From assembly GCA_030424715.1 (NCBI GenBank), contig JAUHWH010000004.1:32437-96436 (forward strand): a stretch of DNA of 64,000 nt, written 5' to 3'. Position 1 is the first letter of the stretch; every line of letters starts with the position of its first letter. The translations under genes and the position numbers were made by a program. Below, piece by piece: positions 13,286 through 57,013 of the stretch. The DNA comes from Bdellovibrionia bacterium (GTDB lineage: Bacteria > Bdellovibrionota > Bdellovibrionia > Bdellovibrionales > JAGQZY01). The notes beneath the pieces are model-generated. The model did not search any database, had not been told where the DNA came from, and saw only the letters and a program-made list of their open reading frames with translations.

Positions 13286-13328
13286 AATACGCCTTGTTCC
13301 ATTGCCTTTTGCTCTTTAGACTCAAACC

Positions 13329-38470: not shown

Positions 38471-39973
38471 CTAATCGCAGTCAACAGACTGAATCCGAAC
38501 CCCTTCTGAATAAAGGTTGTCGACGTCGTCAAGATCGAACTGCATATCAGCGCACTGCCGGCGGATGATTGCAGCGGCCTTCGCTGTGTTGCTCACTATC
38601 TGCCGAACCTCGGAGTCAGAAAGACCGAGGTTGTTGTTCACCCACTGGAAGATGGGGCCTTGTGCTTGAAGGTCACTATCGAGACTCATTAATCTGTGGT
38701 AAATTTTGGCACTATAATGTTTCAGATTGTTCAACATACCTGTTGATTTCGAGAAGTTGGCATAGGCCACTCGCCCTCCGGCATCGTTGTCGTTGATGTG
38801 AGTCCGTTGAATCAGTAGGGCGTTATTATCTCTTAATTTTTCAGGGACAGAAATTCGCTGCATTTCACGACGAGAAAGACTTTCATACTCGTCTCTTTTT
38901 TCTCGTTTACTCTTTGTGGCGCCATCGTTTAAGTAGACCCAGTGCCAGGTGTAGTCGATGTTTCCGACTCGGTCTTGCTGGCTAAAAATATAGTCGAGAA
39001 GGGTTATTTCGATCAGTTCGCGCATCCAGAAAGCCACTTGCACTTGCCCCTGCATGCCATCAAGGCCCACCAAGTCTCGGCGCATTTTTCTATCCTTGGC
39101 AGCCTGTCGAACAGCGCCAGGGATCGCTTCTGCTAAAGGCAGAGGCGAGCGCAGGGCTAAAAATCCCGGAGTTTTTTGGAAGTCGCGGTTCTGACCTTTG
39201 CCCCAGCCACTGGCCCGTGTGCCATTAAACTCTGTTGCATAACGTTCACCTTTGTCGTCATACATGGTTCCATAAATTTTGGTTCGGTCATTGGTGAAGA
39301 TGTCGTCAGTCGGTCGATACGAAGAGGGGTTGGTCTCGGCGCGGACCATCAGGTCCCAGCCAGCAGCGATCATCCCAGACGACGTCAGTCGGCGTCCTTT
39401 ACTGGACACTCGCTCAAGGTGAATGTCGCGGTCCATCTCGCGATAGACAGCGACAGGAACCTTTACCTTGGTGTCGAAATAACGAGAAAAATGATAGTAC
39501 AAAAGAGCAGACTGCGAGAACGTACCACTTGTCCCGCTGGCGTTCATTGAGGTCTTCAGTTTGGCCGCTGTTTTGACCCTCGCCCCCTTGGCCTTCTGGC
39601 CACAGTGACTTGAAGTCTCATAGCTCTGTTGGTCGAAAGAGCTTTTACCCAAGTCGTAAACCATAGTCCCTGGGCTGGTGCTCCAAGTTTTTGGACAAAG
39701 AGCGTAGCTGTCGTCGTAAAAGTTGATTGCGCAAAGTAGATTTTCATCTTCACGATCCGATTTTGAGTAGTCCCCATTGGGGAGCTTTGCAAGAGCTGCA
39801 CACTCCTCCTGAACGTCGTTGGCAGACAAGAAGACGCTGACCTTTTCATCGACGGCACCTTGGGCGAACTCGGCATCAGCACTTGCTTTGGCAATCTCCT
39901 CTTGCTGTTCGGTGACGGCTCCACCGTGAAGGCAATACAGTAATATAAATAAAACGTAGATACTTTTTCTCAT
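38471..39973 (-). CDS. Secreted hypothetical protein, possibly with a Fam20/four-jointed-like atypical kinase fold
   Basis: Signal peptide. By-eye motif parallels to Fam20C: LLYYHFSRYFDTKVKVPVAVYR; LLDYIFSQQDRVGNIDY (compare FDFLIGNMDRHHYE); LIQRTHINDNDAGG (compare LIHLDNxRGFG). Confidence 0.5.
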   Translation of the reverse strand: MRKSIYVLFILLYCLHGGAVTEQQEEIAKASADAEFAQGAVDEKVSVFLSANDVQEECAALAKLPNGDYSKSDREDENLLCAINFYDDSYALCPKTWSTSPGTMVYDLGKSSFDQQSYETSSHCGQKAKGARVKTAAKLKTSMNASGTSGTFSQSALLYYHFSRYFDTKVKVPVAVYREMDRDIHLERVSSKGRRLTSSGMIAAGWDLMVRAETNPSSYRPTDDIFTNDRTKIYGTMYDDKGERYATEFNGTRASGWGKGQNRDFQKTPGFLALRSPLPLAEAIPGAVRQAAKDRKMRRDLVGLDGMQGQVQVAFWMRELIEITLLDYIFSQQDRVGNIDYTWHWVYLNDGATKSKREKRDEYESLSRREMQRISVPEKLRDNNALLIQRTHINDNDAGGRVAYANFSKSTGMLNNLKHYSAKIYHRLMSLDSDLQAQGPIFQWVNNNLGLSDSEVRQIVSNTAKAAAIIRRQCADMQFDLDDVDNLYSEGVRIQSVDCD

Positions 39974-41212: not shown

Positions 41213-41746
41213 AGAGAGATCTTCTCAAACACTGCTTAATATTAGAATCCTAGACTATTCTTAGGTCCAGTAGTCCGAAATGGCGCGACACCAGTATCTT
41301 GATGCTCGGACAACCTGGGAGACGACGCCTGAAATACACCCAAGCATACCTTCTCGTCGAGATAGGAAGAGTATTTGCAACAGCGGTCCCACTTGCGATT
41401 TCAGACTGGATTTGTAAAGACCCACACCAAGATTCAATAAGTGTTTTCAAGGTTGATAAGCCGAGGCTATTTCCAAAACTTTTTGAAGAGTGTTCGGTGC
41501 TTTAAATTTGGGGGCGATTTTTAGAATTTACGCCGGTCCCGTAACCTTGAATTTTTAGCAACAGCCGACTGGGATCGCCCTTTAGGGTAGAACCGTCCGA
41601 TTCCTAGGGCTCGGACCTTTGTCCCGTTTTTTGGACGTGATATCCGGACAAATGAGTCTCTACAGCTTTTAGCTTTGATTTGGGCCACAAACAACTTTGG
41701 TACTAAGCTTGCTCTTACCTTTGATTGAAATGAGATCGGAGGAACC

Positions 41747-42409
41747 ATGAAAACCATACTCACTGTTTTAGTCACAATGTTTGCGGCGTCATCCGATGTT
41801 GTCGCTGCCACGTATTCAGAGGCACAGAAGACAATAACGGAGAATGAGGCCACCATTAAAAGCCTAAATGCCGAATTCTTAGCCTTACTGAGTCTAGATG
41901 AAAAATTGCAGACGGTGAGCGCGAAACTTGTAAACAAGAGTCATCTTCTCAACAACATGTTGATTGTTGCTGAACAAAACAAAGATAGTCTCGCTGGTCT
42001 TGGCTACTTTATTGAAGCAGAGCATTTTGAATTCTTCCAACTACCCGAAACCTTCCAAAATAAACGGCTCCAAGAGGTTGGAGCTGAGGCCCTTCCCGTA
42101 ATTTTTACTTTAATCGAAGATCTCGAAAAAGAGTCTTTCGAACTGCCGGCAGCTCCAACGAGAGAGGACATCGCAAACTTGAGTAGGAACACAATCAGTG
42201 TTTATCGAGCCGTTGCTAAGCAGATAACTTTGATCCAATTCCACATCAGTTTAGGGATGCAATACAAAAAAGCGACTATAGCAGGACTTAAGAGGGCGAA
42301 CAGATCACTGAAAGAGGTTCCAGCTCCGAAGAAGAAGCAGGAGAAAGTTGTTCAGCGGCCCCAAGACACCAAGCACTACTGGAACAGCCGAGGTTTGGCG
42401 GTGCCGTGA
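41747..42409 (+). CDS. Secreted alpha-helical protein (hypothetical), first gene of the 41.7-49.4 kb operon
   Basis: GGAGGA RBS. Signal peptide MKTILTVLVTMFAASSDVVAA. Coiled-coil-like sequence. Confidence 0.5.
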   Translation: MKTILTVLVTMFAASSDVVAATYSEAQKTITENEATIKSLNAEFLALLSLDEKLQTVSAKLVNKSHLLNNMLIVAEQNKDSLAGLGYFIEAEHFEFFQLPETFQNKRLQEVGAEALPVIFTLIEDLEKESFELPAAPTREDIANLSRNTISVYRAVAKQITLIQFHISLGMQYKKATIAGLKRANRSLKEVPAPKKKQEKVVQRPQDTKHYWNSRGLAVP

Positions 42410-42482
42410 ACACAAAAATGTAATGACTGAGAGAAAGACCAAACAAACAAGCCAACAAACAAAAAAAAGAAAGGAGATGAAA

Positions 42483-42944
42483 ATGAGAGCAATTTTACTA
42501 ATTTTAACAATACTAGTGGCCTCGGCCGGGAACACCGCCAATGCGGGGGTCTGCATCACAGAGGTGTATGGAAAAGGACTGATGTTGGAGGGGCACTCGA
42601 ACCTCCAGGGGGACGCAGGTGATATCTACCTAGCATCTTTGACCTGCCAAGAGCTCGAGGACATTAACAACGGAGTGCAGGTCGTTGCCATCGGCTTTTC
42701 TGGTGCGGGGATTTACGCGGCTTGCACTGGCGTTGGTCTACCGGCAACTGTCGCGTTAGAGACTGGGGCTTTGGCTCTATCGGCGATCGGATTGATCATC
42801 ACAAACCTAGATTGTGACGATAATGAAAGTGAAAAGATGATTAAAGAAAAAGTGGACCAAGCCGTTTGTGCTTCTTTAGAGGCCCAAGGTTTAGAATGTG
42901 TTCCACCCCTTAACCAAAACAACAACGATATATTTAGTATCTAA
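42483..42944 (+). CDS. Small secreted Cys-containing protein with a Gly/Ala-rich hydrophobic hairpin
   Basis: AAAGGAG RBS. Signal peptide MRAILLILTILVASAGNTANA. Central segment VVAIGFSGAGIYAACTGVGLPATVALETGALALSAIGLIITNL. Six Cys. Confidence 0.5.
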   Translation: MRAILLILTILVASAGNTANAGVCITEVYGKGLMLEGHSNLQGDAGDIYLASLTCQELEDINNGVQVVAIGFSGAGIYAACTGVGLPATVALETGALALSAIGLIITNLDCDDNESEKMIKEKVDQAVCASLEAQGLECVPPLNQNNNDIFSI

Positions 42945-42958
42945 AAAAGGAGACTATC

Positions 42959-43819
42959 ATGAATGTTAAAGTATTTTTTATAAGCTTACTCATTACAACC
43001 CAAGGATTTGCAAACGCTGTGGAAAGCGCACGTTGCGCATCACGTTTTGATTCTTTAGGGCAAGATGTTGCAAAAGGTCGAGCCTCCTGGGCTATTAAAT
43101 GCTTTCCTGATCTAAAGTGGCAAGCCGATGCGGATGGGCAGTTTTATTTGTTTGATGCTCAAAATCAGGTGAAGCAGCTCGGCTATCCAACCTTCATTAA
43201 GCTGGATGCCAATGGTGCCCCCCAAGAATGGGTTGCTCCCACTGATGCCAACGCTGGCTGTGTCAGTCCGGAGATTCACAAATTCGCGGGGTTTTGTCGT
43301 GCTGGTTGCTACACTCCAGATCAAATGCTTCTTTTTTCGGATGGTTATCATTCCATTGAGAGTGCTCGTCGCTCGCTACGAAGTGATATTGTTTCCGTAT
43401 CGCGGGACTCAACAATTGATCAGATCGACTTTCAACTGAGCGAGTTGCGGTCTTACACTGTCGACCCCAAAGCGAAACTGCAAGAGATTTTAACTATTAC
43501 AACTGAAGAAGGGGGCGAGTTGAAGGTGACTCTAAACCATCCTTTGGTCGTCAGTAGCGGTGATATTAAAGAGGCTCGTGACCTTAAGGTTGGTGACAAG
43601 TTGATCAGCGAAGCTGGCACGTTCGAGCCGATCCACTCTATTCAAGAAATTCAATATTTTGGAAAAGTATTGAATGTAGAACTGACCAATCGCAATCTTT
43701 TAAACAATATTGTAGTCGCGCAAGGTTACCTCAATGGGTCGGTTATGTATCAAAATACCGCCACAAAAGAAGTGAACAGACAAGTCTTGAGAACGTTGAT
43801 TCCTGACGCCATTTTGTAA
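42959..43819 (+). CDS. Secreted Hint (Hedgehog/intein-like, BIL-type) domain protein with a ~95-aa N-terminal domain
   Basis: Signal peptide. Hint block A at AG|CYTPDQMLLFSDGYHSIES (Cys117, codon 43307-09). TxxH block KVTLNHPLVV. ...DLKVGDKLIS... and terminal block NNIVVAQGYLNGS. Confidence 0.7.
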   Translation: MNVKVFFISLLITTQGFANAVESARCASRFDSLGQDVAKGRASWAIKCFPDLKWQADADGQFYLFDAQNQVKQLGYPTFIKLDANGAPQEWVAPTDANAGCVSPEIHKFAGFCRAGCYTPDQMLLFSDGYHSIESARRSLRSDIVSVSRDSTIDQIDFQLSELRSYTVDPKAKLQEILTITTEEGGELKVTLNHPLVVSSGDIKEARDLKVGDKLISEAGTFEPIHSIQEIQYFGKVLNVELTNRNLLNNIVVAQGYLNGSVMYQNTATKEVNRQVLRTLIPDAIL

Positions 43820-43864
43820 TTGACGAGGGGGCGAGGTCGCTCGCCCTTCTCTTTGGAGGTCCTT

Positions 43865-45844
43865 ATGTTGATCGTAGAATTAATGAAATTTGCTTTGCTC
43901 ACCTTTTTAGCTACAAGTTGTGTCGCCGCCCATACCGACCAACCTTCATCGCAGTCGCAAGTCAGTCCGCCATTGGTAGAAGCAGAGTTACCTATTCTGA
44001 CTTGTAAGAGAGTCACCGACATCGTTATTGAAAATAGTGATCAAGAGCCATTATGTGTGGACCCAAAAAGAGAGAATGTTTGCTTGCGCAATGATATAAG
44101 CTTTGTGGCGGCCCTTCAGCACCCTGAGAAAGCAATTTTTGAATCGTGCTTGATCTTCGGAGAACCGGCAAGTCTGGCCGCTCTGAATGTGACCCTCAAA
44201 AGAATGCCCGTACGTGTTGATCTTAATGTTGAGTTCAACGAGAAGCAGCGATTTGCCCATTGGGCGGATCAGCATCGAGTGCTACTGAAAGGTCTGCGAG
44301 GCTTTGCAACCAGTTCAAACTTTGGTGAGATTGTGTCTGTGAGTCAGACACCCAGTCCATTTCTTGTGCAAGGTGTTTTGGACCCGCAACTAATGAGTGT
44401 CGATTTCGAGTCAAGCCGTTCATGGCCTCATGCTCCTCAATTGTTAGGCTCTGTCACAGAGCTTATTAAGTACCTGCAAGCAGGAACCCTGAAGGAAAAA
44501 TTTCAAGGTCTTAACACCACTGAGGCTAGACTTCTGGAGTTGAGTAAAAATGCTCCGGTCACTGAGGTTGTTGAGACCTATCGTGAAAACGCCTGTCAAT
44601 CCACTTGCATTAAAGAGTCCGATAAAATCTCACTTGGATCGGGCCAAACATTTTTTAGAGAGTACTTTTCAAGAGGAACAGTCTACAGAAGTGAGTGGGT
44701 CCTTGAGAACTCCGATCAACAAATTGTTGGCTTGTTGTACATGGCAAAGAGCTTTCCCGCTCTATTTGCGAGAATCGAGCGCCACAGTTCCGGAGTCGCG
44801 AAGAGCATTGAGGTAATTAACCGGCAAGGGGCGGTGGTTTTTCAAAAACAGTGGGATATTTCTGATTTAGTGAAGCCGCAGCCTATCGAGGGCCTTGTGG
44901 ACTTCGACTCCATTGAACTACCCAAGGTGGGGTTGTGCGAAGAGTCTCTTGTCCCAGAAATTTTCACGGACCAACACCCTGAAAGTTTCATCTTGAGGGG
45001 CCCGCGTTCGCCAGACAGCTTTTACGGGTGGACGGATGGTTCACAATCGCTTTCAGGTCGAGAGTACGTCAACAAGCTATCTCTGCCGTTGGATCAGTTC
45101 TTTCTTGGTGAACATTCTTTGGATGTAGCCGGTGAGCTGGCGCAAGGAGAGCCGGTCGGCATCATACCTCTTGGGATCAGTGCCTGCCTCAAGCCAAGAG
45201 CCGCCCATGATTGGTGGCCGTCGTTTATCGAAAGTGGCACCCGTGTGATTAATCTGTCGGTGCGCAACCGTGATGACGAGCCAACCTGTCGTGAGTGGAT
45301 CAGGCAACATCCCATCGAGAGTGATCGTGAATCCGTGTTGTGGGTTGTGGCTGCAGGTAACCAAGGGGTTGATGGTCCCAATGGTTGTCCGCAGTATCTC
45401 TCCGGACGACCCAATATCATCGTGGTTGGCGCATCTCAGAGGGGCCGAGTGCACCCCAATAGCAACTACGGTGAAAGTTTAGTTGACATATTCGCTAATG
45501 GAAAAACGTTCGACGGTATGGCGTGGGGGACAAGTTTTGCAGCGCCTAAGGTGGCGAAGGTAGCAGCCGTGATTTTCGCACGCTTCCCGGACCTTACTGT
45601 GGAGCAAGTGAAGGCCGCAATTTTACTGTCAGTGGAGTGGCCGTGGCGAAAGTTGGAGTCCCGAACCGGTGGTGTTTTGGATGCGTCTTCAGCCCTTGAT
45701 TTAGCCGAGTTGATTAATCAAAAGCAGGGCAACATTGATCAAGCCCTCCAAGAAAAGTACGGGAATTTTATAATCAGCTATGAATACGAAAAGAGAAAAG
45801 AATTATGGAAGAAAATATTCAAAGGAGAAAAAAATGAAGAATAG
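43865..45844 (+). CDS. Lipoprotein with C-terminal S8 (subtilisin)-like domain
   Basis: ATG 43865 after GGAGG. Lipobox LTFLATSC. LWVVAAGNQG (oxyanion Asn box) and AWGTSFAAPKVAKVAA (Ser box). The Asp box looks altered (see findings). Confidence 0.65.
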   Translation: MLIVELMKFALLTFLATSCVAAHTDQPSSQSQVSPPLVEAELPILTCKRVTDIVIENSDQEPLCVDPKRENVCLRNDISFVAALQHPEKAIFESCLIFGEPASLAALNVTLKRMPVRVDLNVEFNEKQRFAHWADQHRVLLKGLRGFATSSNFGEIVSVSQTPSPFLVQGVLDPQLMSVDFESSRSWPHAPQLLGSVTELIKYLQAGTLKEKFQGLNTTEARLLELSKNAPVTEVVETYRENACQSTCIKESDKISLGSGQTFFREYFSRGTVYRSEWVLENSDQQIVGLLYMAKSFPALFARIERHSSGVAKSIEVINRQGAVVFQKQWDISDLVKPQPIEGLVDFDSIELPKVGLCEESLVPEIFTDQHPESFILRGPRSPDSFYGWTDGSQSLSGREYVNKLSLPLDQFFLGEHSLDVAGELAQGEPVGIIPLGISACLKPRAAHDWWPSFIESGTRVINLSVRNRDDEPTCREWIRQHPIESDRESVLWVVAAGNQGVDGPNGCPQYLSGRPNIIVVGASQRGRVHPNSNYGESLVDIFANGKTFDGMAWGTSFAAPKVAKVAAVIFARFPDLTVEQVKAAILLSVEWPWRKLESRTGGVLDASSALDLAELINQKQGNIDQALQEKYGNFIISYEYEKRKELWKKIFKGEKNEE

Positions 45845-46532
45845 GACAGTCGCTATTTTTGTCGCGGTTTCGACGATGTTGGTTGTGCTGAGCACCCTGT
45901 GGTTGCAGACCAGTCGAAAGCAGAGGTCAGAAGAGAGAACCAATCGGTTGATTGAAAAAACCGTTAAAGAACGAGTTGATCATTTGAAAATAGAAAAAGC
46001 TACACCGGTTGATGATAGTTCCGCAAAGCATGTTGGAGAGAAACCTTCGGGTATTGATGCTTATTTGTCTAAGATAGAAAAGATTATTCGACTAGAACGC
46101 AAGGTGATTCGAAGTGCTTCGGACAATTCGAGTCTAGAGAAAGCCTTAGCTAATCGAAAGTTGATCAACCAATCCTTGTTGTTTCTAAGTGATGTGGAAC
46201 TTGTGGGTTCTCTTGGTCTCAAGGGCAACCAAGAGCTCAGGATGCAGGCAACGCTATTTTTGTCTCGTGCCTTGGAGTGGCAACAAAACCCTGAGCTTCC
46301 TTGGATACTCGACAAGGTGGGCGACTTTGTGGGTGCTGACAGTCTCAGTGCTATTAAAGATCTTGAAGTCCGCCGCTCTTTTGCTGCCGATAAAGTCGAG
46401 TTGTTTACCAATTTAAAAGATATTTATTTCGAAAAGGGTCTGCAGATTGAACATGAGAATCAGTCAGAAACCAACGCGCGACTCTTTCGCTTTGCCAACA
46501 ATTTTTATAAACTGAATAAACGGGAGATTTGA
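45834..46532 (+). CDS. N-terminally membrane-anchored alpha-helical protein (hypothetical)
   Basis: ATG 45834 after AAAGGAG, overlapping the upstream gene by 11 nt. TM segment VAIFVAVSTMLVVLSTLWL. Confidence 0.5.
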   Translation: MKNRTVAIFVAVSTMLVVLSTLWLQTSRKQRSEERTNRLIEKTVKERVDHLKIEKATPVDDSSAKHVGEKPSGIDAYLSKIEKIIRLERKVIRSASDNSSLEKALANRKLINQSLLFLSDVELVGSLGLKGNQELRMQATLFLSRALEWQQNPELPWILDKVGDFVGADSLSAIKDLEVRRSFAADKVELFTNLKDIYFEKGLQIEHENQSETNARLFRFANNFYKLNKREI

Positions 46533-46533
46533 A

Positions 46534-49392
46534 ATGAGAATTCTAATGGTATTATTTTGTCTAAGCTTTCCGATGATAGCGTTTGCTAATCATAGTCTAC
46601 CAGCCGGAGAGGATAAAGAGGCCGTGCTAGGGATGGGTTTTGATTCTGAAAAAGAGAAGTTCACGGGAACCTGTCTCAAAGGAAAGCTGGTGCGTCGAGG
46701 AAAGCAAGAGGCGAATGTCGCTTTCGAACAAAGTTTAGATCAAAACTCTATGAAAAAAGAGCTGGGTATTGATGCTGGGACCCGATTTCGCTATGGCGAG
46801 GCAACGGTGAAAGCCAGCGCCAAGTTTATGAAATCCAGTCGTAGTGACGGATTTTCTATTTCTGCCGTTTATTCGGGCGACTACAAATTTAAAAACGATA
46901 TTCTTTACTTCGAGGATTCTGCGGACACTCAAGATATAAAGGGGCTTGAGAAACAAAGGTTAACTGATATCGGGAAAGCTGTGCGAAATGACGATGATCG
47001 CTGGCGTGAAACCTGTGGTGATGAATACGTCACGCAAATTGTGCGAGGGGCGAAGTTATTCTATTCAATTAAAATCGAATTTTTAACACAAGAAGAAAAG
47101 GACCTGTTTGAAACGGCCTTTAGTTATGATTCCACATTTGCTTCTGTGAAAGCCAGTCTGAAAAACATTTCTGAGAATTTCAGTAAAAGAACAAAAATCA
47201 CGGTCGGGGCTTTGCAAATTGGTGGGGACACGCGAAAAATTACCGAACTCTTTTTCGACAACAAAGAAACTGGTGACAGTAGTTCAATGGGATTTGTGAA
47301 ATGTTCATTTGGGGACCTTGCCAAATGTGACCAGGTGATGGCTAATGCGATTCGCTACGCCACCAAAGACTTTAAAGACCAACTGGAGTCAAAACCGGAT
47401 CAGCCGAGCTACGAGGGTGGACCCGCAGACCTACGCTATATTACCGCTCCCTATGCTGATGCTGGAATTTTTCCAAAGTTTTCTTCGATTTTAACCGCAG
47501 CAGTCCGAGCGAAGCGATGGGAACTAGAGACCTTGTTTGATCGTCTCATGGACAACCTAGGTACGGTCAATTCCCTGTTAACCTCAAGTTCCGTGGTTTT
47601 GAGCCCGAGGCAAAATGGACTCCTAAAGACGGTGAAGCAAGAACTCGACAAAGACGTCAGAAGCCTCATTTTGGCGGCAGAGACTTGTTACAACTCTGTC
47701 GAGGAGTGTGTTGCCACAGCGGATTCGATCACACCAAAACTGAGTGAGTTTGATGAGAATTCAGTGATCATTTTACCTGAAACCTTTCGACAGTACTGTG
47801 CCCGGTCAGAGAGTACCCTTTCGACTAAAAAGCTAAGCACCTCGATTCGGGGGATGTTGGATGCTGCTCGAGAAATCGAGCCAGACAGCTTTAGTAGTGA
47901 TCCTGGGGGCAAGACAGATTCTTGTTTGCAGGCTCATAATGTGTTTATGAGAAATAACGAGATAAGAACGTTTTCTGGTAAAAAAATTAGTACGTTGGTG
48001 CCTCTACAGGAATATAGCCATTTTGTAGCCGTCGACTTTTCTGAGAACTCTATCGATGACCTCGAGCCGCTCCACGACTGGAAAAACCTGGAGGAGTTGG
48101 ACTTAGGCGACAATAAGATTCGCGATCTGGTTTTTTTAGAGAGACTCGTTAACTTGAGGTTATTATCCTTAAGCAACAACCACCTGCGAGACATCAGTCT
48201 TTTAACAAAACTCCCCATGCTTGAGCGGGTTGATGCGAGAAACAACTTCGAGACGGTGAGCTGTCAGAGCTTTTCGCAAGACGTTGTTTGCCTTAGTGCA
48301 ACCGTGCGGACTGACGCGAAGTTTGTCCATACGTCGACGACAACATCTCGACCACTGTTTATGCCGTCTTTAGTGGATTTGCGGGGTGGGGAGTTCTTGG
48401 TCCTCAGTGATAACCAAGATGTGCAAACTTACCGTTTGGCTGACAATAGCTTTAGTATCACGGGACGTTTGAGTCTTAAGTCTCGTGGTCGGGTCGCGAC
48501 ACAGTTGGCTGATGGTGACATTTTGATCACCGGCGGTTGGTTGTCGGGTAATTCTTTAGCTATTTACAACCCAGAGCTTGGCCAGATGATGCAAGAGTTC
48601 AAAGGGCTGCAGGTACAGCGTGTTGGACACACCAGCACACTTCTTGACGATGGACGTGTGCTTTTGGCGGGCGGCTGGGAAGGCGGAGTGAGTTTCTCCG
48701 GGACAGATGCCACTTATACGGCTGAGGTTTTTGATCCCGAGACAAATTCGACTTATCCGGTGGGCAACCTGCATGCACCAAGAGCTTGGCACACAGCAAC
48801 TAAGCTCTTCGACGGGAAAGTTCTGATTGTTGGTGGCTTTGACTGGAGCAGCGGTATCGCCACGGCCGAGATCTTTGACCCCGAGACCAATGAATTCACT
48901 CAGCTAGAATATTCTATGGCACAAGGGCGTGGGGCTCACTCAGCCACTGTGCTGGCCAGCGGAAAGATCTTACTCGCCGGGGGATTTGATTTGGGTGCCC
49001 AGGCCATTGATCGTGCTGAGCTGTTTGATCCTGCGGTCGGTAAATTTTTGCCCATCAAAGAGACTTTGAATTGGGCTCGCGGCATGCACTCAGCAGTGCG
49101 ACTCAATAATGGCAAGGTTCTATTGGCGGGTGGTTCTGTTGAGCCTTTTGCTCCGGACCATCCCGTCGATTTCACTCCCAATGATCATATCGATCGCGGT
49201 GAGCTTTATGACCCTGTTGAGAACAGCTTTATGAAGGTACCAGGAAAGATGGCTGTTCCGAGAGCACGCCACGGAATGTATGAAACCAAACCCGGAACCG
49301 TATTAATTATGGGTGGTTTAACCTGGGAATCAGCAAATAAGCTCGAAATCTTTAACTATGTGGATGTGAATACAACTTCACCACTGCAGTGA
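46534..49392 (+). CDS. Secreted MACPF-like pore-forming domain / leucine-rich repeat / six-blade Kelch protein
   Basis: Signal peptide. MACPF-like LGMGFDSEK... and CGDEYVTQIVRGAKLF (compare the (Y/W)GTHYvxxxxxGG signature). LRRs NLEELDLGDNKIRDLVFLERLVNLRLLSLSNNHLRDI. Six Kelch units of the type DGxvLxxGG(w/f). Confidence 0.7.
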   Translation: MRILMVLFCLSFPMIAFANHSLPAGEDKEAVLGMGFDSEKEKFTGTCLKGKLVRRGKQEANVAFEQSLDQNSMKKELGIDAGTRFRYGEATVKASAKFMKSSRSDGFSISAVYSGDYKFKNDILYFEDSADTQDIKGLEKQRLTDIGKAVRNDDDRWRETCGDEYVTQIVRGAKLFYSIKIEFLTQEEKDLFETAFSYDSTFASVKASLKNISENFSKRTKITVGALQIGGDTRKITELFFDNKETGDSSSMGFVKCSFGDLAKCDQVMANAIRYATKDFKDQLESKPDQPSYEGGPADLRYITAPYADAGIFPKFSSILTAAVRAKRWELETLFDRLMDNLGTVNSLLTSSSVVLSPRQNGLLKTVKQELDKDVRSLILAAETCYNSVEECVATADSITPKLSEFDENSVIILPETFRQYCARSESTLSTKKLSTSIRGMLDAAREIEPDSFSSDPGGKTDSCLQAHNVFMRNNEIRTFSGKKISTLVPLQEYSHFVAVDFSENSIDDLEPLHDWKNLEELDLGDNKIRDLVFLERLVNLRLLSLSNNHLRDISLLTKLPMLERVDARNNFETVSCQSFSQDVVCLSATVRTDAKFVHTSTTTSRPLFMPSLVDLRGGEFLVLSDNQDVQTYRLADNSFSITGRLSLKSRGRVATQLADGDILITGGWLSGNSLAIYNPELGQMMQEFKGLQVQRVGHTSTLLDDGRVLLAGGWEGGVSFSGTDATYTAEVFDPETNSTYPVGNLHAPRAWHTATKLFDGKVLIVGGFDWSSGIATAEIFDPETNEFTQLEYSMAQGRGAHSATVLASGKILLAGGFDLGAQAIDRAELFDPAVGKFLPIKETLNWARGMHSAVRLNNGKVLLAGGSVEPFAPDHPVDFTPNDHIDRGELYDPVENSFMKVPGKMAVPRARHGMYETKPGTVLIMGGLTWESANKLEIFNYVDVNTTSPLQ

Positions 49393-49404: not shown

Positions 49405-49425
49405 AGGGGCCGCCGGCTGAGGCCC
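49405..49425. terminator. GC hairpin between convergent genes (terminator-like)
   Basis: GGGGCC-N9-GGCCCC, 12 nt after the stop of the MACPF gene. No strong T-run. Confidence 0.35.
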
Positions 49426-49443
49426 CGATTCTAATGACCCGGA

Positions 49444-50718: not shown

Positions 50719-51024
50719 ATGAACAAATTTAAGAACACGATCTTGGCACTAGCTTTCGTTTTTTCGCACTCACCAGCCTTTGCTGAGATGTGCATTTTGG
50801 GTAAGCAAGAAATTGTTTTGGCTGACGACTTTATTGAGTCTTTGACACCTGAGCAAAGAAAGTATCTCGATGCCGCTTTGAAAAAAGCTCAAGCCGATCC
50901 TGAAATTGAGCTTGAATATCAGCCAGGATGGGAAGAGTTCGATCTTGATAGCCTCGAAGCTACGGCCTGTGGCACACTTTCAAGCAATACGAATCCGACA
51001 GCTTCCGCGGGCGAACATTTTTAG
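50719..51024 (+). CDS. Small secreted acidic protein with an S/T/C-rich C-terminal tail
   Basis: Signal peptide MNKFKNTILALAFVFSHSPAFA. Mature part of 78 aa ending ...LEATACGTLSSNTNPTASAGEHF. Confidence 0.5.
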   Translation: MNKFKNTILALAFVFSHSPAFAEMCILGKQEIVLADDFIESLTPEQRKYLDAALKKAQADPEIELEYQPGWEEFDLDSLEATACGTLSSNTNPTASAGEHF

Positions 51025-51047
51025 TCGTCCTTGCCCAAGTACGTACG

Positions 51048-52097
51048 ATGAACTTTCTTGGAGACGCCCATAATTTTGGACAAAAAGTTAACAGGGAAGA
51101 CGACATCGTCAAAAAGCCACGTCCCGTCTTTTGGGAGTGGCTTTTTTTAGATACGGAAAGTGAGTTAAGACAGCTTCTCTCAAAAAGATCTCGGTTAGTC
51201 AGTACAGAAGACCCATTTTTATCATTTCCAAATTTGAATGTTAAAGAAGCCCCTGGGCTTCATGGTTTTCCGGCGGGAGTCGTTGATTACTTTCAAACGA
51301 CTGTTCCGGAAAAATCAGCAATGACTGATTCGTTAGCGAAAGCTGTTGGAAGAGCGATAGGAGTTGCTCATTTTTTTGGTCTCAGTGACCTTCATATTGA
51401 AAACTTTGGTGTTTCACAAATTACAAATGGCTGTTTCTTCTTTCCATTGGATATCGAAGTTATATTCAATCGTCTCAAATTAGCTTCTCAAACCTATATT
51501 TTAGACAGCGTAAAGAATGAATCTAAGATTGTTGGTCTGTCTTTGATGAGAAACAAAAACTTAAATATAGCGGCAGTTATTAGTAGTTACCTGCTGACCA
51601 TAGAGTTTTTGAATACTAATTTGAAAGAAATTAACGATGTTCTCGTTAAGTTAAATGTGAAAAGTATACCGATCAGGTGTATTGTGAAGCCATCGATGGA
51701 GTATGCTGATTATCTCAGGACCGATAACATCGAGTCCTCGGTCTTTTACCCAGAGGAACTGGAGCAGCTCGAGAGAGGGGACATCCCCTATTTTTTTCAC
51801 TATCTGGGCGACTATAGCATTAGATATTTAACTAAGGATGGCGAGAAAGTTACGAGTTTTTCATGGGAAGATGTATTCAAAATGGATTTGATATCGGAAA
51901 GTCAAATTGAACAACCAGTGTCTGTAGTTGATGAAAATGCAATAAAAGCCTCGATTCTGCAGATAGCAAGAACTTTAGACACTACCGTTGAGAATGACTT
52001 TTCGTTTGAAGCCACAACTGTTTCGTTTCAGGGTGACTCAATTTTTATAAAGTGTGGAACGGGTTGGAAGCTGAAATGCCAAAGGATGTCAAAATAG
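51048..52097 (+). CDS. Stand-alone DUF4135 protein (LanM N-terminal kinase/dehydratase-like domain, no LanC cyclase domain)
   Basis: LGDAHNFGQKV...IVKKPRP; GLSDLHIENFGV...FFFPLDIEVIF; IRCIVKPSMEYADYL; ELEQLERGDIPYFF. These blocks parallel those of class II lanthipeptide synthetase N-domains. No signal peptide. Confidence 0.6.
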   Translation: MNFLGDAHNFGQKVNREDDIVKKPRPVFWEWLFLDTESELRQLLSKRSRLVSTEDPFLSFPNLNVKEAPGLHGFPAGVVDYFQTTVPEKSAMTDSLAKAVGRAIGVAHFFGLSDLHIENFGVSQITNGCFFFPLDIEVIFNRLKLASQTYILDSVKNESKIVGLSLMRNKNLNIAAVISSYLLTIEFLNTNLKEINDVLVKLNVKSIPIRCIVKPSMEYADYLRTDNIESSVFYPEELEQLERGDIPYFFHYLGDYSIRYLTKDGEKVTSFSWEDVFKMDLISESQIEQPVSVVDENAIKASILQIARTLDTTVENDFSFEATTVSFQGDSIFIKCGTGWKLKCQRMSK

Positions 52098-53566
52098 CTA
52101 GATCTGCCCTCGTGTTTTTTCTTTTCATCCAAGCAAATCTTTCGGTGGCTTCTTCCGAGTTAGGTGTTGCTATACCTTCCTATATTGAAACCTATGAACC
52201 GAGTAAAGGGTGGAGCTTTTACCAACGTTTTATTATGAATTGCGTGTATCAGCGACTTTTCTCAATTGACCAGTTCGGTCAGGTTGAAGGTGAGCTTGCC
52301 GAGAGCTGGTTCTTTTCAAAATCTGGTAAGACTCTTACCTTAACAGTGTCTGATAAAGCGCGCTTCAGCGATGGTTCACCGGTTACCCTTGATGATATAT
52401 TCCTGTCATTGTCAAAACCGTTTGCGACTCCCGAAGATAGTTATGTTAACAGAGTTCTCGGGCCAGCTATGGGCTTGAGGGCTCCATTAAAAGTGGGTGA
52501 GATTCTTCCCAATCTTAAGCGGTTGGGTGGCCGCAGTTTTGCGATTGAGATGCAGCAAGTCTACCTTCCACTTATTGATATTCTGGGTAGCTACCTTTTT
52601 CCTGTGATGAAAACTACGGATAACTTACTCGGTTCAGGACCTTACATAGCGAAAAAAGAGAGACGAGGCCTGTGGACCCTCTATACAAATCCCTTTCATC
52701 AGGAGGGTGCTAAAAAAATTAAGAAAATAAAAATTTTGACGGAATTCTCGCAAGAAAAAGTCCAAAAATTGATTCAAAACAAAGAGATACACTTTGCTAT
52801 GGGATTCCACCTTCGAGACCTCCAGGATCAAGAAGGGACCTTCACAATCAAAAAGGTTTTGAAAGCAGGTTACAATCATTTCTATTTCAACCTCGAGAGT
52901 AGGTCTCTAAAAGATAAAAGTTTTAGAGCTTATCTTGGGCATATACTTAAAGACGTAGCAAGAAACCATTACTCACGGTTTGAGGAGTTCGTGCCACGAT
53001 TGCTTCCTCGAGGGCTACTACCCCTCGCTTATCATTCGCAGACGGTTGCGGCCCCAAAAGTCACCTTGCAACAAACGAAACTAAATATGCCAAGGTCGCG
53101 GATTAAGCTTTTATTTGTTGGGCGACACTTTGCGGATGGATTCTTCGAAGAGCTTCAAGCAGCTTTAGATAAGTCAGGCATAGATGGGAATATTGAGATT
53201 TTAAAAGGACCAGAGTATAACAAAGTAATACAAGAGAGAAAATTTGATGTGATTTCTTACCCGGTGATTCCTTCTTATCATGATCCAGATGGTTATTTTG
53301 CTGACCCAACCTATTTTTCAATTTGTGGTGATAAAAGGACCTGCCCCTATAAAAAAATGCTTTTAGCGGCAAGGTATGTAAAAGACAAGACGAAAAGAAG
53401 CGACCTTTTTTCTAAACTTTTTCGTAAAATTGAGTCGGATTGGATTCTTGTGCCTGGCTTCAAGACATCTATTCCGATTGCTATTTCAAATGATTTGATT
53501 TTGCCTCCGATTAACTACCGTGATCAGGTGAAGCTTTGGAAAATGGAGTTCAGAAATGCAAAGTAG
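52076..53566 (+). CDS. Periplasmic solute-binding protein, family 5 (peptide/nickel-type)
   Basis: Signal peptide. ...GELAESWFFSKSGKTLTLTVSDKARFSDGSPVTLDDI..., typical of SBP_bac_5. Overlaps the upstream gene by 22 nt. Confidence 0.7.
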   Translation: MPKDVKIARSALVFFLFIQANLSVASSELGVAIPSYIETYEPSKGWSFYQRFIMNCVYQRLFSIDQFGQVEGELAESWFFSKSGKTLTLTVSDKARFSDGSPVTLDDIFLSLSKPFATPEDSYVNRVLGPAMGLRAPLKVGEILPNLKRLGGRSFAIEMQQVYLPLIDILGSYLFPVMKTTDNLLGSGPYIAKKERRGLWTLYTNPFHQEGAKKIKKIKILTEFSQEKVQKLIQNKEIHFAMGFHLRDLQDQEGTFTIKKVLKAGYNHFYFNLESRSLKDKSFRAYLGHILKDVARNHYSRFEEFVPRLLPRGLLPLAYHSQTVAAPKVTLQQTKLNMPRSRIKLLFVGRHFADGFFEELQAALDKSGIDGNIEILKGPEYNKVIQERKFDVISYPVIPSYHDPDGYFADPTYFSICGDKRTCPYKKMLLAARYVKDKTKRSDLFSKLFRKIESDWILVPGFKTSIPIAISNDLILPPINYRDQVKLWKMEFRNAK

Positions 53567-54908
53567 CACTCCAAATTTGAAAAATAAGATTATTCTCCCC
53601 ATCATAGTTTCGAGCTTGATTATCCTTTCTTTTTTCACGGTTGTTTTATTTTTTACCTTTAATGATAAGCTCCTTGAGATTTCCAGTAGACAATATGAGG
53701 CTACTCTAGAGGTTTTTTCCAGGTCCATCCGTGATAGTTTTCTTAGAGGGCTCGATGGAGAAGTAAACCAATACTGTCGACTTATCCTCGCTGATGAGAA
53801 TGTTTCTTATGTTTCCGTGACTCGTGCTGATGGTGGAAAGATTTGTGATCTCCGGGGCGATAGGCCTTATGATCAGGCGATTGTTTTAGAAAGAGATATT
53901 CGTTTTAAAAAAGGTGGCGAGTCAGCTGGAGTTGTGGAAGTGCATTTCAATAGTGCGTATTATGGGTTGTTGATTGTTTATTTGGCATTGTCTTTATTTC
54001 TCTCGTTGTTTCTTTCCGTTATTCTATTCTCTTTCTTTGGCTCTAAATTCATAAGTCAGCAGATCGAACCCTTCTCACACCTAGCCGATCGTCTTTTTAG
54101 AGGGAAGGTTGAGGAACTTCAGGAGATTAACAAGATGCCGGGGGCCAATAGAAATTTCGAAATCCGAAGCTTAACAGATGGGGTCTCTTTCTTGGCGAAC
54201 TCCTTTATTTCCTATCAAGGAGAGATGGTAAAGTCGGAACGCCTCGATGCGATCAATGAGTATTCGAGATTGATTGCTCACGATATTAAAGCGCCAATAG
54301 CAGGAATTAAAGCAGGGGTGGATCATTTTAAAGCAAAGCCAGAAGCTTCCTTGAGGTTAATCTCTAGGAGTCTTGAGCGTATTGAATTCATGGTTGAGAG
54401 AATCCTAGAAAAAAATAAAATTGATGGGATTAAGCCGGAGCTGGAGCTCGTAAACTTCCAGAGTTGGTTTTTCACCTTAGAAGCGCCGTCTTTTGACGAG
54501 CTGGGGTATGATGAATCTAAACTCGAATTTGAACTGGTTGGTGACAAGAATGATGTTCTTTGCTTAGTCGATAGAGATCTCTTACTGCGAGCGGTATTAA
54601 ACTTACTAAAAAACTCGAAGGAAGCTATAGAGTCCACGGTAAAACCAAAGGTTCATGTAAAGGCGACATTGTCAGAAAAAGTGGTTATGCTTGAGATTAG
54701 AGATAATGGGCCTGGTTTCCCAAAAGAAGTTCTTGAAAACGTGGGGTCTCAAGGACTTACAATCGGTAAAGAAGGTGGAAGTGGGCTTGGAATCTATCAG
54801 GTCAAGAGGTCTGTGGAAATCATGGGAGGCGTGTTCTCGATTTCCAATCCGGTGGCGGGAGGAGCTTTTGTGGAGATTCATTTGCCCGTAAATAGTGGGA
54901 GTTTATAG
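53556..54908 (+). CDS. Sensor histidine kinase (2 TM, ~130-aa periplasmic loop), with no cognate response regulator nearby
   Basis: H-box SRLIAHDIKAPIAGI. N-box LLKNSKEA. DNGPGF and GGSGLGIYQV ATP-lid motifs. Overlaps the binding-protein gene by 11 nt. Confidence 0.85.
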   Translation: MQSSTPNLKNKIILPIIVSSLIILSFFTVVLFFTFNDKLLEISSRQYEATLEVFSRSIRDSFLRGLDGEVNQYCRLILADENVSYVSVTRADGGKICDLRGDRPYDQAIVLERDIRFKKGGESAGVVEVHFNSAYYGLLIVYLALSLFLSLFLSVILFSFFGSKFISQQIEPFSHLADRLFRGKVEELQEINKMPGANRNFEIRSLTDGVSFLANSFISYQGEMVKSERLDAINEYSRLIAHDIKAPIAGIKAGVDHFKAKPEASLRLISRSLERIEFMVERILEKNKIDGIKPELELVNFQSWFFTLEAPSFDELGYDESKLEFELVGDKNDVLCLVDRDLLLRAVLNLLKNSKEAIESTVKPKVHVKATLSEKVVMLEIRDNGPGFPKEVLENVGSQGLTIGKEGGSGLGIYQVKRSVEIMGGVFSISNPVAGGAFVEIHLPVNSGSL

Positions 54909-57013
54909 TGTTGAGTTTTGCTAATTTTATGAAATGGATTTTCTTCTTATATGTTTCATGCCTTTTACTTTCTTGTTCCACTACGGATAGAGACTACAAG
55001 TATGAAGACAATTTCTCTTTTTTGGAGACGCCTGACGCTAAGACGCAAAATTTTATTAAAACTCACAATAGGATTGCCAAAGAGAGCTTACTGTCAGACC
55101 CTTCACGCTTAAAGGAGAACGAGAGTATACTTGTCTCTAGTCAAACCAATCCTCGTATGACATTCGTGGGCCCCTACGTCTTCAAACTTGAAAAAAACAA
55201 GAGAAATCCACGCGGAAGGCTTCTTTTTACAGCCATAGACAAAATAGGTCAGAGATCTTCAGTTTGGAAGTCTGCCATTGACTTCGACAGACTATCGGCG
55301 AAAGAGAAAATCAAATGGTCCTTTTCAAAAATTGATTGTCTGTTGCCGGAAGCCAATTCTTGCCTTGTCCATCTCTCTAAAGATGGTGGCGATAAGGTCG
55401 AGGTAAGAGAATTTGATCTTCGAAAAAGACGGTTTGTAAAGAAAGGCTTTCGAGTCCCTATTGGCTTTACGAAAACGGCCTGGATCAACCCCAGCCAGAT
55501 TATGGTTGCAACGAACGTTGGTGACGGTACTGTCGGCTCTGGGGGACTTGCCAACCAGGTCAGACTGATCAGTCGGGGACAAAAGCTTACTGCCGGCAAA
55601 ATCATTTTTGGTCTTCAACCAGATTATATTAGTCTTTATTTTCAGGGACACCCCTATAAAAATTCTCAGCTTGTCATCGGAAGTCAGTTCGCTTCAGAGA
55701 AGAAAAATGATTTTTGGGTCCTGACTTCAGCAGAGCCTCAAAAAATTCCCACGCCCAAGGCGTCTATCTTTTATGGAATTCACAATGACTACCTTGTCTT
55801 CCAATGTTGGACTCCTTGGTTAGTGGGCGCGAAGCGTTGTGGAAAAGGGGATTTGATCGGAATACATATCGATCAAGCGGGGAGTAAACAGGCCTCTGAA
55901 GATAAGGTTATTGTTTTGTACAAAGCTCGCCCTGAATCATCTATTTACAGCGTCGGAGTCAGCTCCAAGGGTATTCTTGTAAATTATCTCGAGAATGTGA
56001 TTGGGAAGATTGTGGGCGTAAAAATTGACTCCAATCAAAAAAAACAGTCGCTACGACTTCGACGACTGTCTGGACACCTGCGGCTTCAAGAAGTCGACTA
56101 CAGAAAGGGTCGTTTTTTAGTCGGCAGCCAAGATTACCTCAACCCCGCAAGGCTTTCTTTATTCGATATCGATGAAAACAAAGCCTCGATCGTAAAAACA
56201 CAAGAGGCAAGTTTTGATTCAAAGGGCATGACTTATCAACAGCTTTGGGCCACCGCACCTGACGGTGTAAAGATCCCTTATTTTGTTGTTGGAAAGAAGA
56301 AAGCTTTAGCTAGTGGAAATGCTCCGACCATTGTTTTCTCTTACGGAGGTTTTGGTATCACCTATACTCCAAAGTACGATTCGTTGTTGGGAAAGAACTG
56401 GCTTGAGAAAGGCGGTCTTTACGTCCAGGCTGGCATTCGTGGTGGTGGCGAATTTGGTCCAGATTGGCACAAAGCCGCGTTACGAGAGAAGCGGGTAGTG
56501 GCCTTTGATGATCTTATTGCCGTTTTAAAAGACCTTGTTATTCGTAAGCTGACCACTAAGTCTAAGCTTGGGGCCTACAGCGGTAGTAATGGGGGCTATC
56601 TCTTAGGTGGGGTTATGGTGCGTGAGCCGAATCTCTTGAAAGCTGTCGCTCTTAAGGTGCCCTTGTTCGACATGCTCAATTTTCATCGCTTTCTTGCAGG
56701 TTCGAGCTGGGTTAGCGAGTATGGAGATCCAAGAGTTTCAAAAGACCGAGCTTTTCTAGAAAGGCTTTCTCCATATCAAAACTTATCTAAAAAAGTGAAT
56801 TATCCATCGACGTTTGTTTATACCTCTTCATCAGATGATCGTGTCCATCCAAGCCATGCTCGCAAGATGGCCGCCAAATTATTAGACTACGGGAGCGAAG
56901 TCTATTTTTATGAAAGTCAGGAGGGTGGCCACGCTGGAGCAGCAACACTCAAACAACAGGCTTATTGGGAGACCATGATGTTTCAGTTTTTCCAGTTAAA
57001 GCTTGGTCTGTAA
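54908..57013 (+). CDS. Prolyl oligopeptidase (S9A) family serine peptidase, lipoprotein
   Basis: GTG start after GGGAG, overlapping the kinase stop by 1 nt. Lipobox SCLLLSCS. Beta-propeller N-domain. Catalytic GSNGGYL (Ser), SSDDRV (Asp) and EGGHAG (His). Confidence 0.85.
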   Translation: MLSFANFMKWIFFLYVSCLLLSCSTTDRDYKYEDNFSFLETPDAKTQNFIKTHNRIAKESLLSDPSRLKENESILVSSQTNPRMTFVGPYVFKLEKNKRNPRGRLLFTAIDKIGQRSSVWKSAIDFDRLSAKEKIKWSFSKIDCLLPEANSCLVHLSKDGGDKVEVREFDLRKRRFVKKGFRVPIGFTKTAWINPSQIMVATNVGDGTVGSGGLANQVRLISRGQKLTAGKIIFGLQPDYISLYFQGHPYKNSQLVIGSQFASEKKNDFWVLTSAEPQKIPTPKASIFYGIHNDYLVFQCWTPWLVGAKRCGKGDLIGIHIDQAGSKQASEDKVIVLYKARPESSIYSVGVSSKGILVNYLENVIGKIVGVKIDSNQKKQSLRLRRLSGHLRLQEVDYRKGRFLVGSQDYLNPARLSLFDIDENKASIVKTQEASFDSKGMTYQQLWATAPDGVKIPYFVVGKKKALASGNAPTIVFSYGGFGITYTPKYDSLLGKNWLEKGGLYVQAGIRGGGEFGPDWHKAALREKRVVAFDDLIAVLKDLVIRKLTTKSKLGAYSGSNGGYLLGGVMVREPNLLKAVALKVPLFDMLNFHRFLAGSSWVSEYGDPRVSKDRAFLERLSPYQNLSKKVNYPSTFVYTSSSDDRVHPSHARKMAAKLLDYGSEVYFYESQEGGHAGAATLKQQAYWETMMFQFFQLKLGL

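Follow-up and report, generated by a model that had tools for sequence, protein, structure and literature searches.

We describe a cluster of six genes, g1 to g6, at positions 41747–49392 of a 64,000-nt stretch of the genome of a Bdellovibrionia bacterium. This stretch is called the window, and all positions refer to it unless one of the related loci, designated by L-numbers, is named. With three protein families not yet characterised and a subtilase whose acid residue is atypical, the cluster represents, in our best reading, a type of exported MACPF/CDC toxin locus. We give about an even chance to the view that it serves predatory bacteria as an exported pore-forming toxin module under sigma-54 control, with its own processing protease, a domain released by a Hint protein and a membrane-anchored partner. 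The features on which this argument turns are the following:

41612–41653, no strand assigned: candidate activator-binding sites, formed by the palindrome CGGAC-CTTT-GTCC (41612–41624) and GGAC half-sites at 41634–41637 and 41646–41649
41698–41712, + strand: sigma-54 type −24/−12 element TGGTAC-N5-TTGC, 50 nt upstream of the g1 ATG
41747–42409, + strand: g1, secreted protein of 220 aa without Cys, with a hydrophobic segment at residues 3–22
42483–42944, + strand: g2, secreted protein of 153 aa with 6 Cys and a Gly/Ala-rich hydrophobic hairpin at about residues 70–115
42959–43819, + strand: g3, whole open reading frame (ORF), 286 aa
42959–43306, + strand: g3 signal peptide (aa 1–20) and N-domain (aa 21–116), with four conserved Cys (C26, C48, C101, C113) and ending in invariant Gly116
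43307–43819, + strand: g3 Hint domain (aa 117–260) and conserved 26-aa C-terminal helix, with Cys117, Thr191-x-x-His194 and Asn259-Gly260-Ser261
43865–45844, + strand: g4, 659 aa, with lipobox Cys19 (LATS/C), a Cys-rich N-terminal half (aa 20–350) and an S8 domain (about aa 350–620)
45834–46532, + strand: g5, 232 aa, overlapping g4 by 11 nt, with an uncleaved-looking N-terminal anchor at aa 4–26
46534–49392, + strand: g6, whole ORF, 952 aa
46606–47433, + strand: g6 MACPF/CDC-like domain (about aa 25–300), with C161-G-D-E-Y-x6-G172-A and Q228-I-G-G231
47434–47913, + strand: g6 helical Cys-containing region (aa 301–460), conserved in the family, helical in the model and part of the same N-terminal module
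47941–48303, + strand: g6 LRR region (about aa 470–590), Pfam LRR_4 (1.2e-11) and LRR_8, NCBIfam internalin-type LRR
48331–49392, + strand: g6 Kelch beta-propeller (about aa 600–950), Pfam Kelch_1, Kelch_4, Kelch_6 and Kelch_2 at 1e-12 to 5e-21
49406–49426, no strand assigned: GC-rich hairpin GGGGCC-N9-GGCCCC, read directly, 14 nt past the g6 stop and between the convergent g6 and DUF4174 genes

The six ORFs lie co-directionally on the + strand, and the ORF map confirms the gaps given in an earlier, sequence-only reading of this DNA: 73 (or 67, depending on the start of g2), 14, 45, −11 and 1 nt from g1 to g6. That reading had also assigned a Sec signal, a lipobox or an N-terminal anchor to every product, in agreement with the hydrophobic N-terminal segment found in 6/6 of them (maximal KD12 2.0–2.9). 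The G+C content across the region is unremarkable. When the window is compared with the related loci, homology ends exactly at g1 and at g6, the flanks being unrelated, and chance adjacency of the genes is ruled out by synteny. Because the gene order is conserved, often with overlapping genes, in differing genomic contexts, and because a sigma-54 promoter is conserved as well, the comparison supports that g1–g6 form one co-transcribed functional cluster. The GC hairpin noted earlier after the last gene is present at 49406–49426; its role as an intrinsic terminator is unsupported, since a T-run is missing and the terminator scan passed over it.

The conservation of the cluster was studied by a profile search with an alignment of the Hint protein over 185,579 species genomes, the gene content being established by tblastn and ORF mapping. 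There are 33 Hint loci, 30 of them labelled Bdellovibrionota or Myxococcota and 3 in metagenome-assembled genomes (MAGs) labelled 'Deltaproteobacteria' or 'bacterium', and the closest relatives of the window genes are in Bdellovibrionales MAGs, which makes this order the most likely source of the window. The order Hint–S8–g5–MACPF-LRR-Kelch, colinear and with overlapping or closely spaced genes, is found in seven genomes (the window, L003/L013, L004/L007, L009, L010, L011 and L021), whose flanks are unrelated; the identity of g6 to its nearest orthologues is 67, 61 and 47–48%. Thus, the co-occurrence of the Hint and MACPF-LRR-Kelch genes, which the sequence-only reading had proposed for checking, is conserved. 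Partial and rearranged versions are also found: Hint–S8–MACPF-Kelch without g5 in a member of the Myxococcaceae (L015), the same families in rearranged order (L025), the order S8–Hint–MACPF–MACPF (L035), and Hint–S8–g5 as far as the contig end (L012). L005 is a decayed copy in which a Kelch fragment is the sole remnant of g6. Its positions 12998–13610, after the Hint and S8 genes, hold a 55-aa anchor-like ORF and a 178-aa fragment with 49% identity to the g6 Kelch part, which suggests that g5 and the MACPF part were lost by deletion. Judged by these comparisons, the conserved unit is one of four genes: Hint (g3), S8 (g4), g5 and MACPF-LRR-Kelch (g6). The six-gene unit proposed earlier is to be corrected in this respect: g3–g6 are the conserved core, and g1 and g2 are limited to the closest relatives. 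The claim that all the modules are 'eukaryote-like' does not hold either, since they are widespread in bacteria.

Upstream of g1, the 534 nt at 41213–41746 had been taken for a non-coding leader. They are instead a divergent intergenic region, adjoining a minus-strand metallophosphoesterase gene, with the sigma-54 element at 41698–41712, which would leave a 5' untranslated region of about 25 nt. A sigma-54 promoter has GG and GC doublets 10 nt apart within TGGCAC-N5-TTGC, 5' of the first gene, and the element of the window (TGGTAC-N5-TTGC) agrees with this pattern. The element is the sole match in the 64-kb window on both strands (0.22 expected; at least one match in 19/100 shuffles), and TGG(C/T)AC-N5-TTGC is conserved when the upstream regions of the window and L003 are aligned. 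Moreover, strict matches occur 39–146 nt 5' of the first cluster gene in L003, L008, L009, L011, L017 and L025, with near-matches at the equivalent position in L004, L005 and L021. In 428 kb-strands of Bdellovibrionota loci, 6/11 strict matches are at the first-gene position, where about 0.06 would be expected by chance. Sigma-54 control is part of our best reading, with dependence on RpoN and an activator being predicted. The GGAC repeats at 41612–41653, which include CCGGACAAAT at 41644–41653, are candidate activator-binding sites: in the otherwise diverged alignment of the window with L003, the blocks TCGGAC...GTCC and CGGACAAAT are conserved. No Rfam family was matched in the 534-nt interval, and an RNA element was rejected there for lack of such matches. 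In L003 there is a second strict sigma-54 element, at 4622, 78 nt 5' of an unannotated 333-aa gene that precedes the cluster.

The case for a pore-former depends on g6. The LRR and Kelch assignments of this 952-aa protein are solid at the level of Pfam profiles, so that part of the MACPF-LRR-Kelch description given in the sequence-only reading can be kept. The N-terminal 460 aa retrieve nothing in Pfam, NCBIfam, PADLOC or PHROGs, nor in a sequence search of the PDB at E ≤ 10; in this module, C385 is invariant and C392 nearly so in the family alignment. The MACPF/CDC fold consists of a bent central beta-sheet with two flanking helical clusters that refold into hairpins, and its MACPF signature is Y/W-G-T/S-H-F/Y-x6-G-G, followed by a conserved Gly-Gly after the second transmembrane hairpin (TMH2). 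The assignment of g6 to this fold is based on matches of the predicted structure, a signature-like motif and beta periodicity. When the model of the g6 N-domain was compared with 350,542 PDB chains by Foldseek, all 50 matches listed were MACPF/CDC-superfamily proteins or allied pore-formers, among them complement C8, BT_3439, Plu-MACPF, Mpf2Ba1, stonustoxin, TgPLP1, pneumolysin, perforin and astrotactin. In the sequence, seven residues (C161, G162, G172, A173, Q228, G230 and G231) do not vary among 17 members of the family, in which the signature-like stretch reads C-G-D-E-[YF]-x6-G-A, and HMMER aligns this stretch with YGDRFIADFIKGG of the pore-former 9uj0 at E 0.17. In addition, beta-amphipathic periodicity peaks at about 56–95 and 166–235, flanking the signature-like motif where TMH1 and TMH2 would be, and the segments at about 56–105 and 176–225 are candidate membrane-inserting hairpins. 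Taken together, the model and the motifs make it quite probable, in our opinion, that aa 25–300 adopt a MACPF/CDC fold.

A large family, not represented in Pfam, is built on the N-terminal domain of g6; in most members this domain is joined to LRR, and in many to Kelch. An exhaustive profile search gives 2,377 clusters at 50% identity with E ≤ 1e-3, of which 512 have E ≤ 1e-30; LRR is present in 43/57 scanned members, Kelch in 23/57 and Pfam MACPF in 0/57. A word-indexed search found 4–5 matches of this domain and missed the 61–67% identical orthologues in NCBI MAGs, so its low count is no sign of rarity. The contig collection has no record of the g6 of the window itself. Around two distant MACPF-LRR relatives we observed genes of other kinds: DNA methylase, Mrr, GIY-YIG, ORC/CDC6-like and ThyX in L001, and AbiTii and an integrase in L041, a locus that looks like Bacteroidota.

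The protease of the module would be g4. Its description as a lipoprotein with an S8-like domain is borne out by a Pfam Peptidase_S8 match above threshold (2.6e-18, 66.8 bits against a cutoff of 21.8) and by lipobox Cys19, kept in 11/11 homologues. The match covers profile positions 107–273 only, i.e. the C-terminal two thirds, and subtilisin BPN' aligns to g4 over the AAGN and GTSxAxP blocks. His417, oxyanion Asn499 and Ser557 are invariant in the 11-sequence alignment. The acid position, after conserved Cys358, is Glu in 8/11 sequences (Glu359 in the window), Asp in 2 and unclear in L035. As placed by the alignment, not by a structure, the acid residue would be Glu359, and g4 is predicted to be an active Glu/Asp-His-Ser subtilase. 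The N-terminal 330 aa have no relative in Pfam or the PDB. A subtilase with Glu as the acid residue is an enzymological oddity that deserves study by itself. In L010 (10879–12952), two overlapping ORFs (458 and 254 aa) take the place of a single S8 gene, possibly through a frameshift or a MAG assembly error.

In the Hint protein g3, G116, C117, T191 and H194 are invariant in an alignment of 37 sequences of the family; Gly260, at the end of the last Hint strand, is also invariant, and Asn259 and Ser261 are kept in at least 90%. Pfam and NCBIfam give sub-threshold matches only (Intein_splicing and PT-HINT), and the best PDB sequence match is a bacterial intein-like (BIL) domain. The AF2 model has a predicted local distance difference test score (pLDDT) of 80 overall and of 75–96 across most of the N-domain. 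With this model, Foldseek retrieves, at prob 1.0, the BIL domain 2lwy (template modelling score TMt 0.84, rmsd 2.2 Å), Hedgehog 1at0/6tyy (TMt 0.73) and inteins too. On the basis of the model, we are confident that g3 carries the Hint fold, so the structural check of this assignment that had been proposed is positive. The invariant Gly-Cys junction, threonine and histidine also show that the description "built like Hedgehog" is correct as regards architecture: a signal peptide, a Cys-rich N-domain, a Gly-Cys junction and Hint. For aa 1–116 there is no Pfam family, HH_signal included. A splicing intein is unlikely: the +1 position after Asn259 is the invariant Gly260, which is no nucleophile, and a C-extein is missing, there being just the 26-aa tail.

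As for g5, the sequence-only reading had called it a membrane-anchored helical protein, and an alignment of 20 homologues from Bdellovibrionota and Myxococcota agrees with this. The family has a transmembrane anchor (aa 4–26 in the window), a variable linker and a helical domain of about 150 aa with the motifs RKVL, W..NPE and SxAxDKxELF (SLAGDKVELF). No gene accompanies Hint more constantly than g5, which is directly downstream of Hint or S8 in most loci. It has no relative in Pfam or the PDB, nor homology to the gene upstream of the L001 MACPF-LRR relative.

The first two genes, confined to the closest relatives, are lineage-specific accessories as far as their distribution goes. For g1, probably helical, a single homologue was found, in L003 (28% identity), and no family in Pfam, NCBIfam, PADLOC or PHROG. 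g2 has orthologues in L003 (60%) and L004 (51%) only, belongs to no known family in Pfam or NCBIfam, and shows no homology to the small Gly-rich protein of L040. It has a transmembrane-like segment at residues 88–107. An alternative in-frame ATG at 42477 would give it the start 'MKMRAILL', similar to the MK... starts of the orthologues, and the gap from g1 would then be 67 nt.

These parts can be put together in the following way. An enhancer-binding activator would turn on the promoter at 41698–41712, and Sec would export all six products. g3 would cleave itself at Gly116/Cys117 through the Hint N-to-S acyl shift (Cys117, Thr191, His194), which would set free the N-domain (about 96 aa, with disulfide bonds); the 26-aa C-terminal helix may be released as well, through Asn259. 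The lipid-tethered g4 would act as the processing enzyme, its likeliest substrate being the pro-form of g6 and/or g3. By means of LRR and Kelch, g6 would bind the target, oligomerise and insert the two beta-hairpins of its MACPF/CDC-like domain to form a pore. g5, in the inner membrane of the producer, might bind or hold the N-domain as a protective or receptor partner, with g1 and g2 serving as lineage-specific accessories. If this is true, a perforin-like module for killing, dedicated and regulated, is present in predatory Bdellovibrionota and in some myxobacteria. The claim that the combination is not a described bacterial system agrees with the literature that could be searched, where we found no description of it, nothing linking Hint domains with MACPF proteins in bacteria, nothing describing MACPF proteins in Bdellovibrio or Myxococcus and no weapon of MACPF type in these groups.

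Several results weigh against the toxin module. Regarding the fold of g6, Pfam MACPF (PF01823) and thiol-cytolysin gave no match to g6 (E ≤ 1), to the 57 family members (E ≤ 0.01) or to 17 N-domains (E ≤ 10). With a profile of 17 sequences of the g6 family, the four matches listed among PDB sequences are Aeg-L (E 0.17), aligned over the signature-like stretch, stonustoxin beta (E 0.25) and, below these two, two uL29 ribosomal proteins, none of them significant. The AF2 model, from a six-sequence alignment, is of modest confidence (pLDDT 61.7), and its Foldseek matches, in spite of a best E of 1e-4 and prob 0.98–1.0, have template modelling scores of 0.15–0.27. The profile and Foldseek check proposed for this domain is therefore divided: negative in Pfam and leaning towards membership in Foldseek, with solely MACPF/CDC-type proteins among the matches listed but low scores. 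The MACPF part of the earlier description is moderately supported by the model matches and the signature alignment. Regarding the machinery, the 64-kb window contains no sigma-54 activator gene, and a route across the outer membrane is not evident. Regarding the unity of the module, at least 11 Myxococcota loci, some of them with tandem copies, have Hint and g5 but no S8 or MACPF, and so does a plasmid of Bdellovibrio sp. HAGR004. Conversely, MACPF-LRR relatives occur without Hint or S8 in L001, L002, L040, L041 and L043, and also on an Acidisarcina plasmid, Pseudoalteromonas chromids and a Piscirickettsia plasmid. Since Hint/g5 and S8/MACPF are separable, the Hint/g5 pair would have a function of its own. 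The pore-forming or effector-maturation function of the earlier hypothesis is plausible, but, given this separability, a Hint protein and an S8 protease that merely serve to mature the MACPF protein would be too simple a picture.

The separability also makes an effector–partner pair with an added delivery pore the main rival. Here the Hint-released N-domain would be a toxin or ligand and g5 its immunity protein or receptor, the MACPF protein and the protease having been added in some lineages for delivery. Hint plus g5 is the most widespread combination, in two phyla and often multicopy or in tandem, and a g5-like gene also accompanies a Hint fusion lipoprotein on the Bdellovibrio plasmid. In this cultured strain (L042, 5093–8547, plasmid pBdHAGR2), the N-domain and Hint are the C-terminus of a 911-aa Cys-rich lipoprotein, and an overlapping g5-like gene follows (hhalign prob 84%); the strain is tractable for the study of the Hint–g5 pair. 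In L040, the MACPF-LRR-Kelch gene, which has neither Hint nor S8 beside it, stands between a g5-like gene and one for a possible N-domain-only protein, but the N-domain match is weak (E 2e-4 pairwise). The arrangement is reminiscent, by analogy, of perforin/granzymes or streptolysin O/NADase. Yet the N-domain is homologous family-wide and not swapped as in polymorphic toxins, it resembles no known toxin or immunity family in Pfam or the PDB, and a lipid-anchored g4 is unlikely as cargo. We think that this explanation has a minor, although real, share of the probability. N-domain-only proteins have no Pfam or PDB relative; in Pyxidicoccus xibeiensis (L006, 8359–11807), a 129-aa secreted match of this kind (30%, 88 aa) stands between two tandem Hint genes, with a g5-like gene after them.

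Somewhat less probable is a non-lytic complex for surface recognition or adhesion, in which the g6 N-domain would be a structural MACPF-like module or an unrelated one, LRR and Kelch would bind molecules of the prey or host surface, and protease and Hint would remodel the surface. LRR and Kelch are indeed binding modules, a non-lytic protein with the MACPF fold, astrotactin, is among the Foldseek matches of g6, and a sequence-level match to MACPF is missing in Pfam. However, the signature motif and the invariant Gly-Gly are conserved in the g6 family, beta-amphipathic segments are found at the TMH1 and TMH2 positions, and the best structural matches are lytic toxins.

Two other possibilities start from the chemistry of Hint. 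In the first, the Hint thioester would, as in Hedgehog, link the C-terminal Gly116 of the N-domain with a lipid or with a partner such as g5, g6 or the envelope, giving a covalently armed component that works with the previously unrecognised MACPF-like family. We consider it unlikely, although, if true, it would be a bacterial system of Hedgehog-type ligand and pore-former specific to predatory lineages. In the second, the thioester would move the N-domain onto a lipid or other molecule as in Hedgehog-like cell–cell signalling, the tethered signal being sensed by g5 in social or predatory bacteria. The Hedgehog-type architecture and catalytic residues of g3, the conserved C-terminal helix after Hint, where Hedgehog has its sterol-recruiting region, and the confinement of the family to two phyla with complex behaviours are in line with signalling. 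But the N-domain of g3 does not resemble the signalling domain of Hedgehog, g5 lacks a recognisable signalling output domain, and linkage to a pore-former and a protease suits a weapon better, so that we find this explanation improbable. Finally, gasdermin-type anti-phage abortive infection, with a pore-former, a protease and a repeat-domain sensor, can be ruled out for practical purposes: a pore-former-like protein does stand beside a subtilase and repeat domains, two distant MACPF-LRR relatives (L001, L041) are near defence-like or phage-like genes and PADLOC gives weak subtilase matches, but it gives no defence-system family beyond this generic similarity, the Foldseek matches of g6 are MACPF/CDC and not gasdermin, and there is no cytoplasmic phage sensing because all six proteins carry export signals. 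Adhesion, signalling and anti-phage roles are hence all less likely than the toxin module.

Some neighbouring genes are worth recording. On the + strand 3' of g6, a set at 50719–57013 encodes a 101-aa secreted protein, a DUF4135 (LanM N-terminal-like) protein, SBP_bac_5, a histidine kinase and an S9 prolyl oligopeptidase, and in L004 a trio SBP_bac_5–YcaO–HATPase is immediately upstream of the Hint cluster. There is no detectable orthology between the two groups, whose roles as neighbours could lie in the modification or sensing of peptides. On the − strand (38471–39973), two genes before the cluster, a protein of 500 aa is encoded that has a signal peptide but matches nothing in Pfam.

The preferred reading, an exported pore-forming toxin module, can be compared with several known systems. 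In perforin/granzymes and streptolysin O/NADase (cytolysin-mediated translocation), a MACPF/CDC pore-former is coupled, genetically or functionally, to a serine protease or small effector. The protease of the cluster is, however, lipid-anchored, and the likeness is an analogy only.

At the level of single proteins, g4 shares with the subtilases (MEROPS S8; subtilisin BPN', mycosins, PatA/PatG) the AAGN oxyanion, GTSxAxP serine and histidine blocks. It differs from them in that the Asp block D-T/S-G is C-E/D-x-G/S/A in the g4 family, and in the addition of the Cys-rich N-terminal half of about 330 aa and a lipid anchor. g3 has in common with Hedgehog/Hog and BIL proteins a signal peptide, an N-domain with conserved Cys, a Gly-Cys junction, the Hint fold with Cys1 and the TxxH block, and a short C-terminal extension. 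Its N-domain, however, is unrelated to HhN, its 26-aa tail, a single helix, is not a sterol-recognition region and, unlike in inteins, the terminal Asn259 is followed by Gly, which makes splicing unlikely. Secreted bacterial proteins with a C-terminal Hint-like domain and a conserved upstream Cys were noted, as uncharacterised, by Burglin in 2008 (PMC2362128). We do not identify g3 with this group, since the architecture is the same but motif A differs, being NSC/MAEGT there and GC/YTP(D/E)Q in the g3 family. g3 is a bacterial protein that shows the Hedgehog architecture cleanly and has g5 as its constant genetic partner; with it, the role of secreted bacterial Hint proteins, a long open question, becomes directly testable.

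The CDCL and BSAP proteins of Bacteroidota (PMC11169675, PMC11952106, PMC12853789) are MACPF/CDC proteins that Gram-negative bacteria export and in which target binding resides in a separate part. The cluster shows no sequence similarity to CDCL, BcdI, DpnB or BSAP, and the CDCL structure 8g32 is far down the Foldseek list of g6. Bacteroidota CDCLs are antibacterial toxins of the superfamily that are activated by a surface protease, while a membrane-bound protein encoded in the operon protects the producer (PMC11169675). In CDCL, the protease is a C11 enzyme on the target, whereas that of the cluster is an S8 lipoprotein encoded in the operon; CDCL has two components, whereas the pore-former of the cluster would be a single chain fused to LRR and Kelch; BcdI is a protective lipoprotein, whereas g5 is an unrelated helical protein with a transmembrane anchor. 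Moreover, the autoprocessing Hint protein of the cluster is without a counterpart in CDCL and BSAP. As regards function, CDCL is the nearest precedent, and the resemblance would be a functional one only, namely the association of a MACPF/CDC-like protein with a surface protease and a membrane-bound operon partner.

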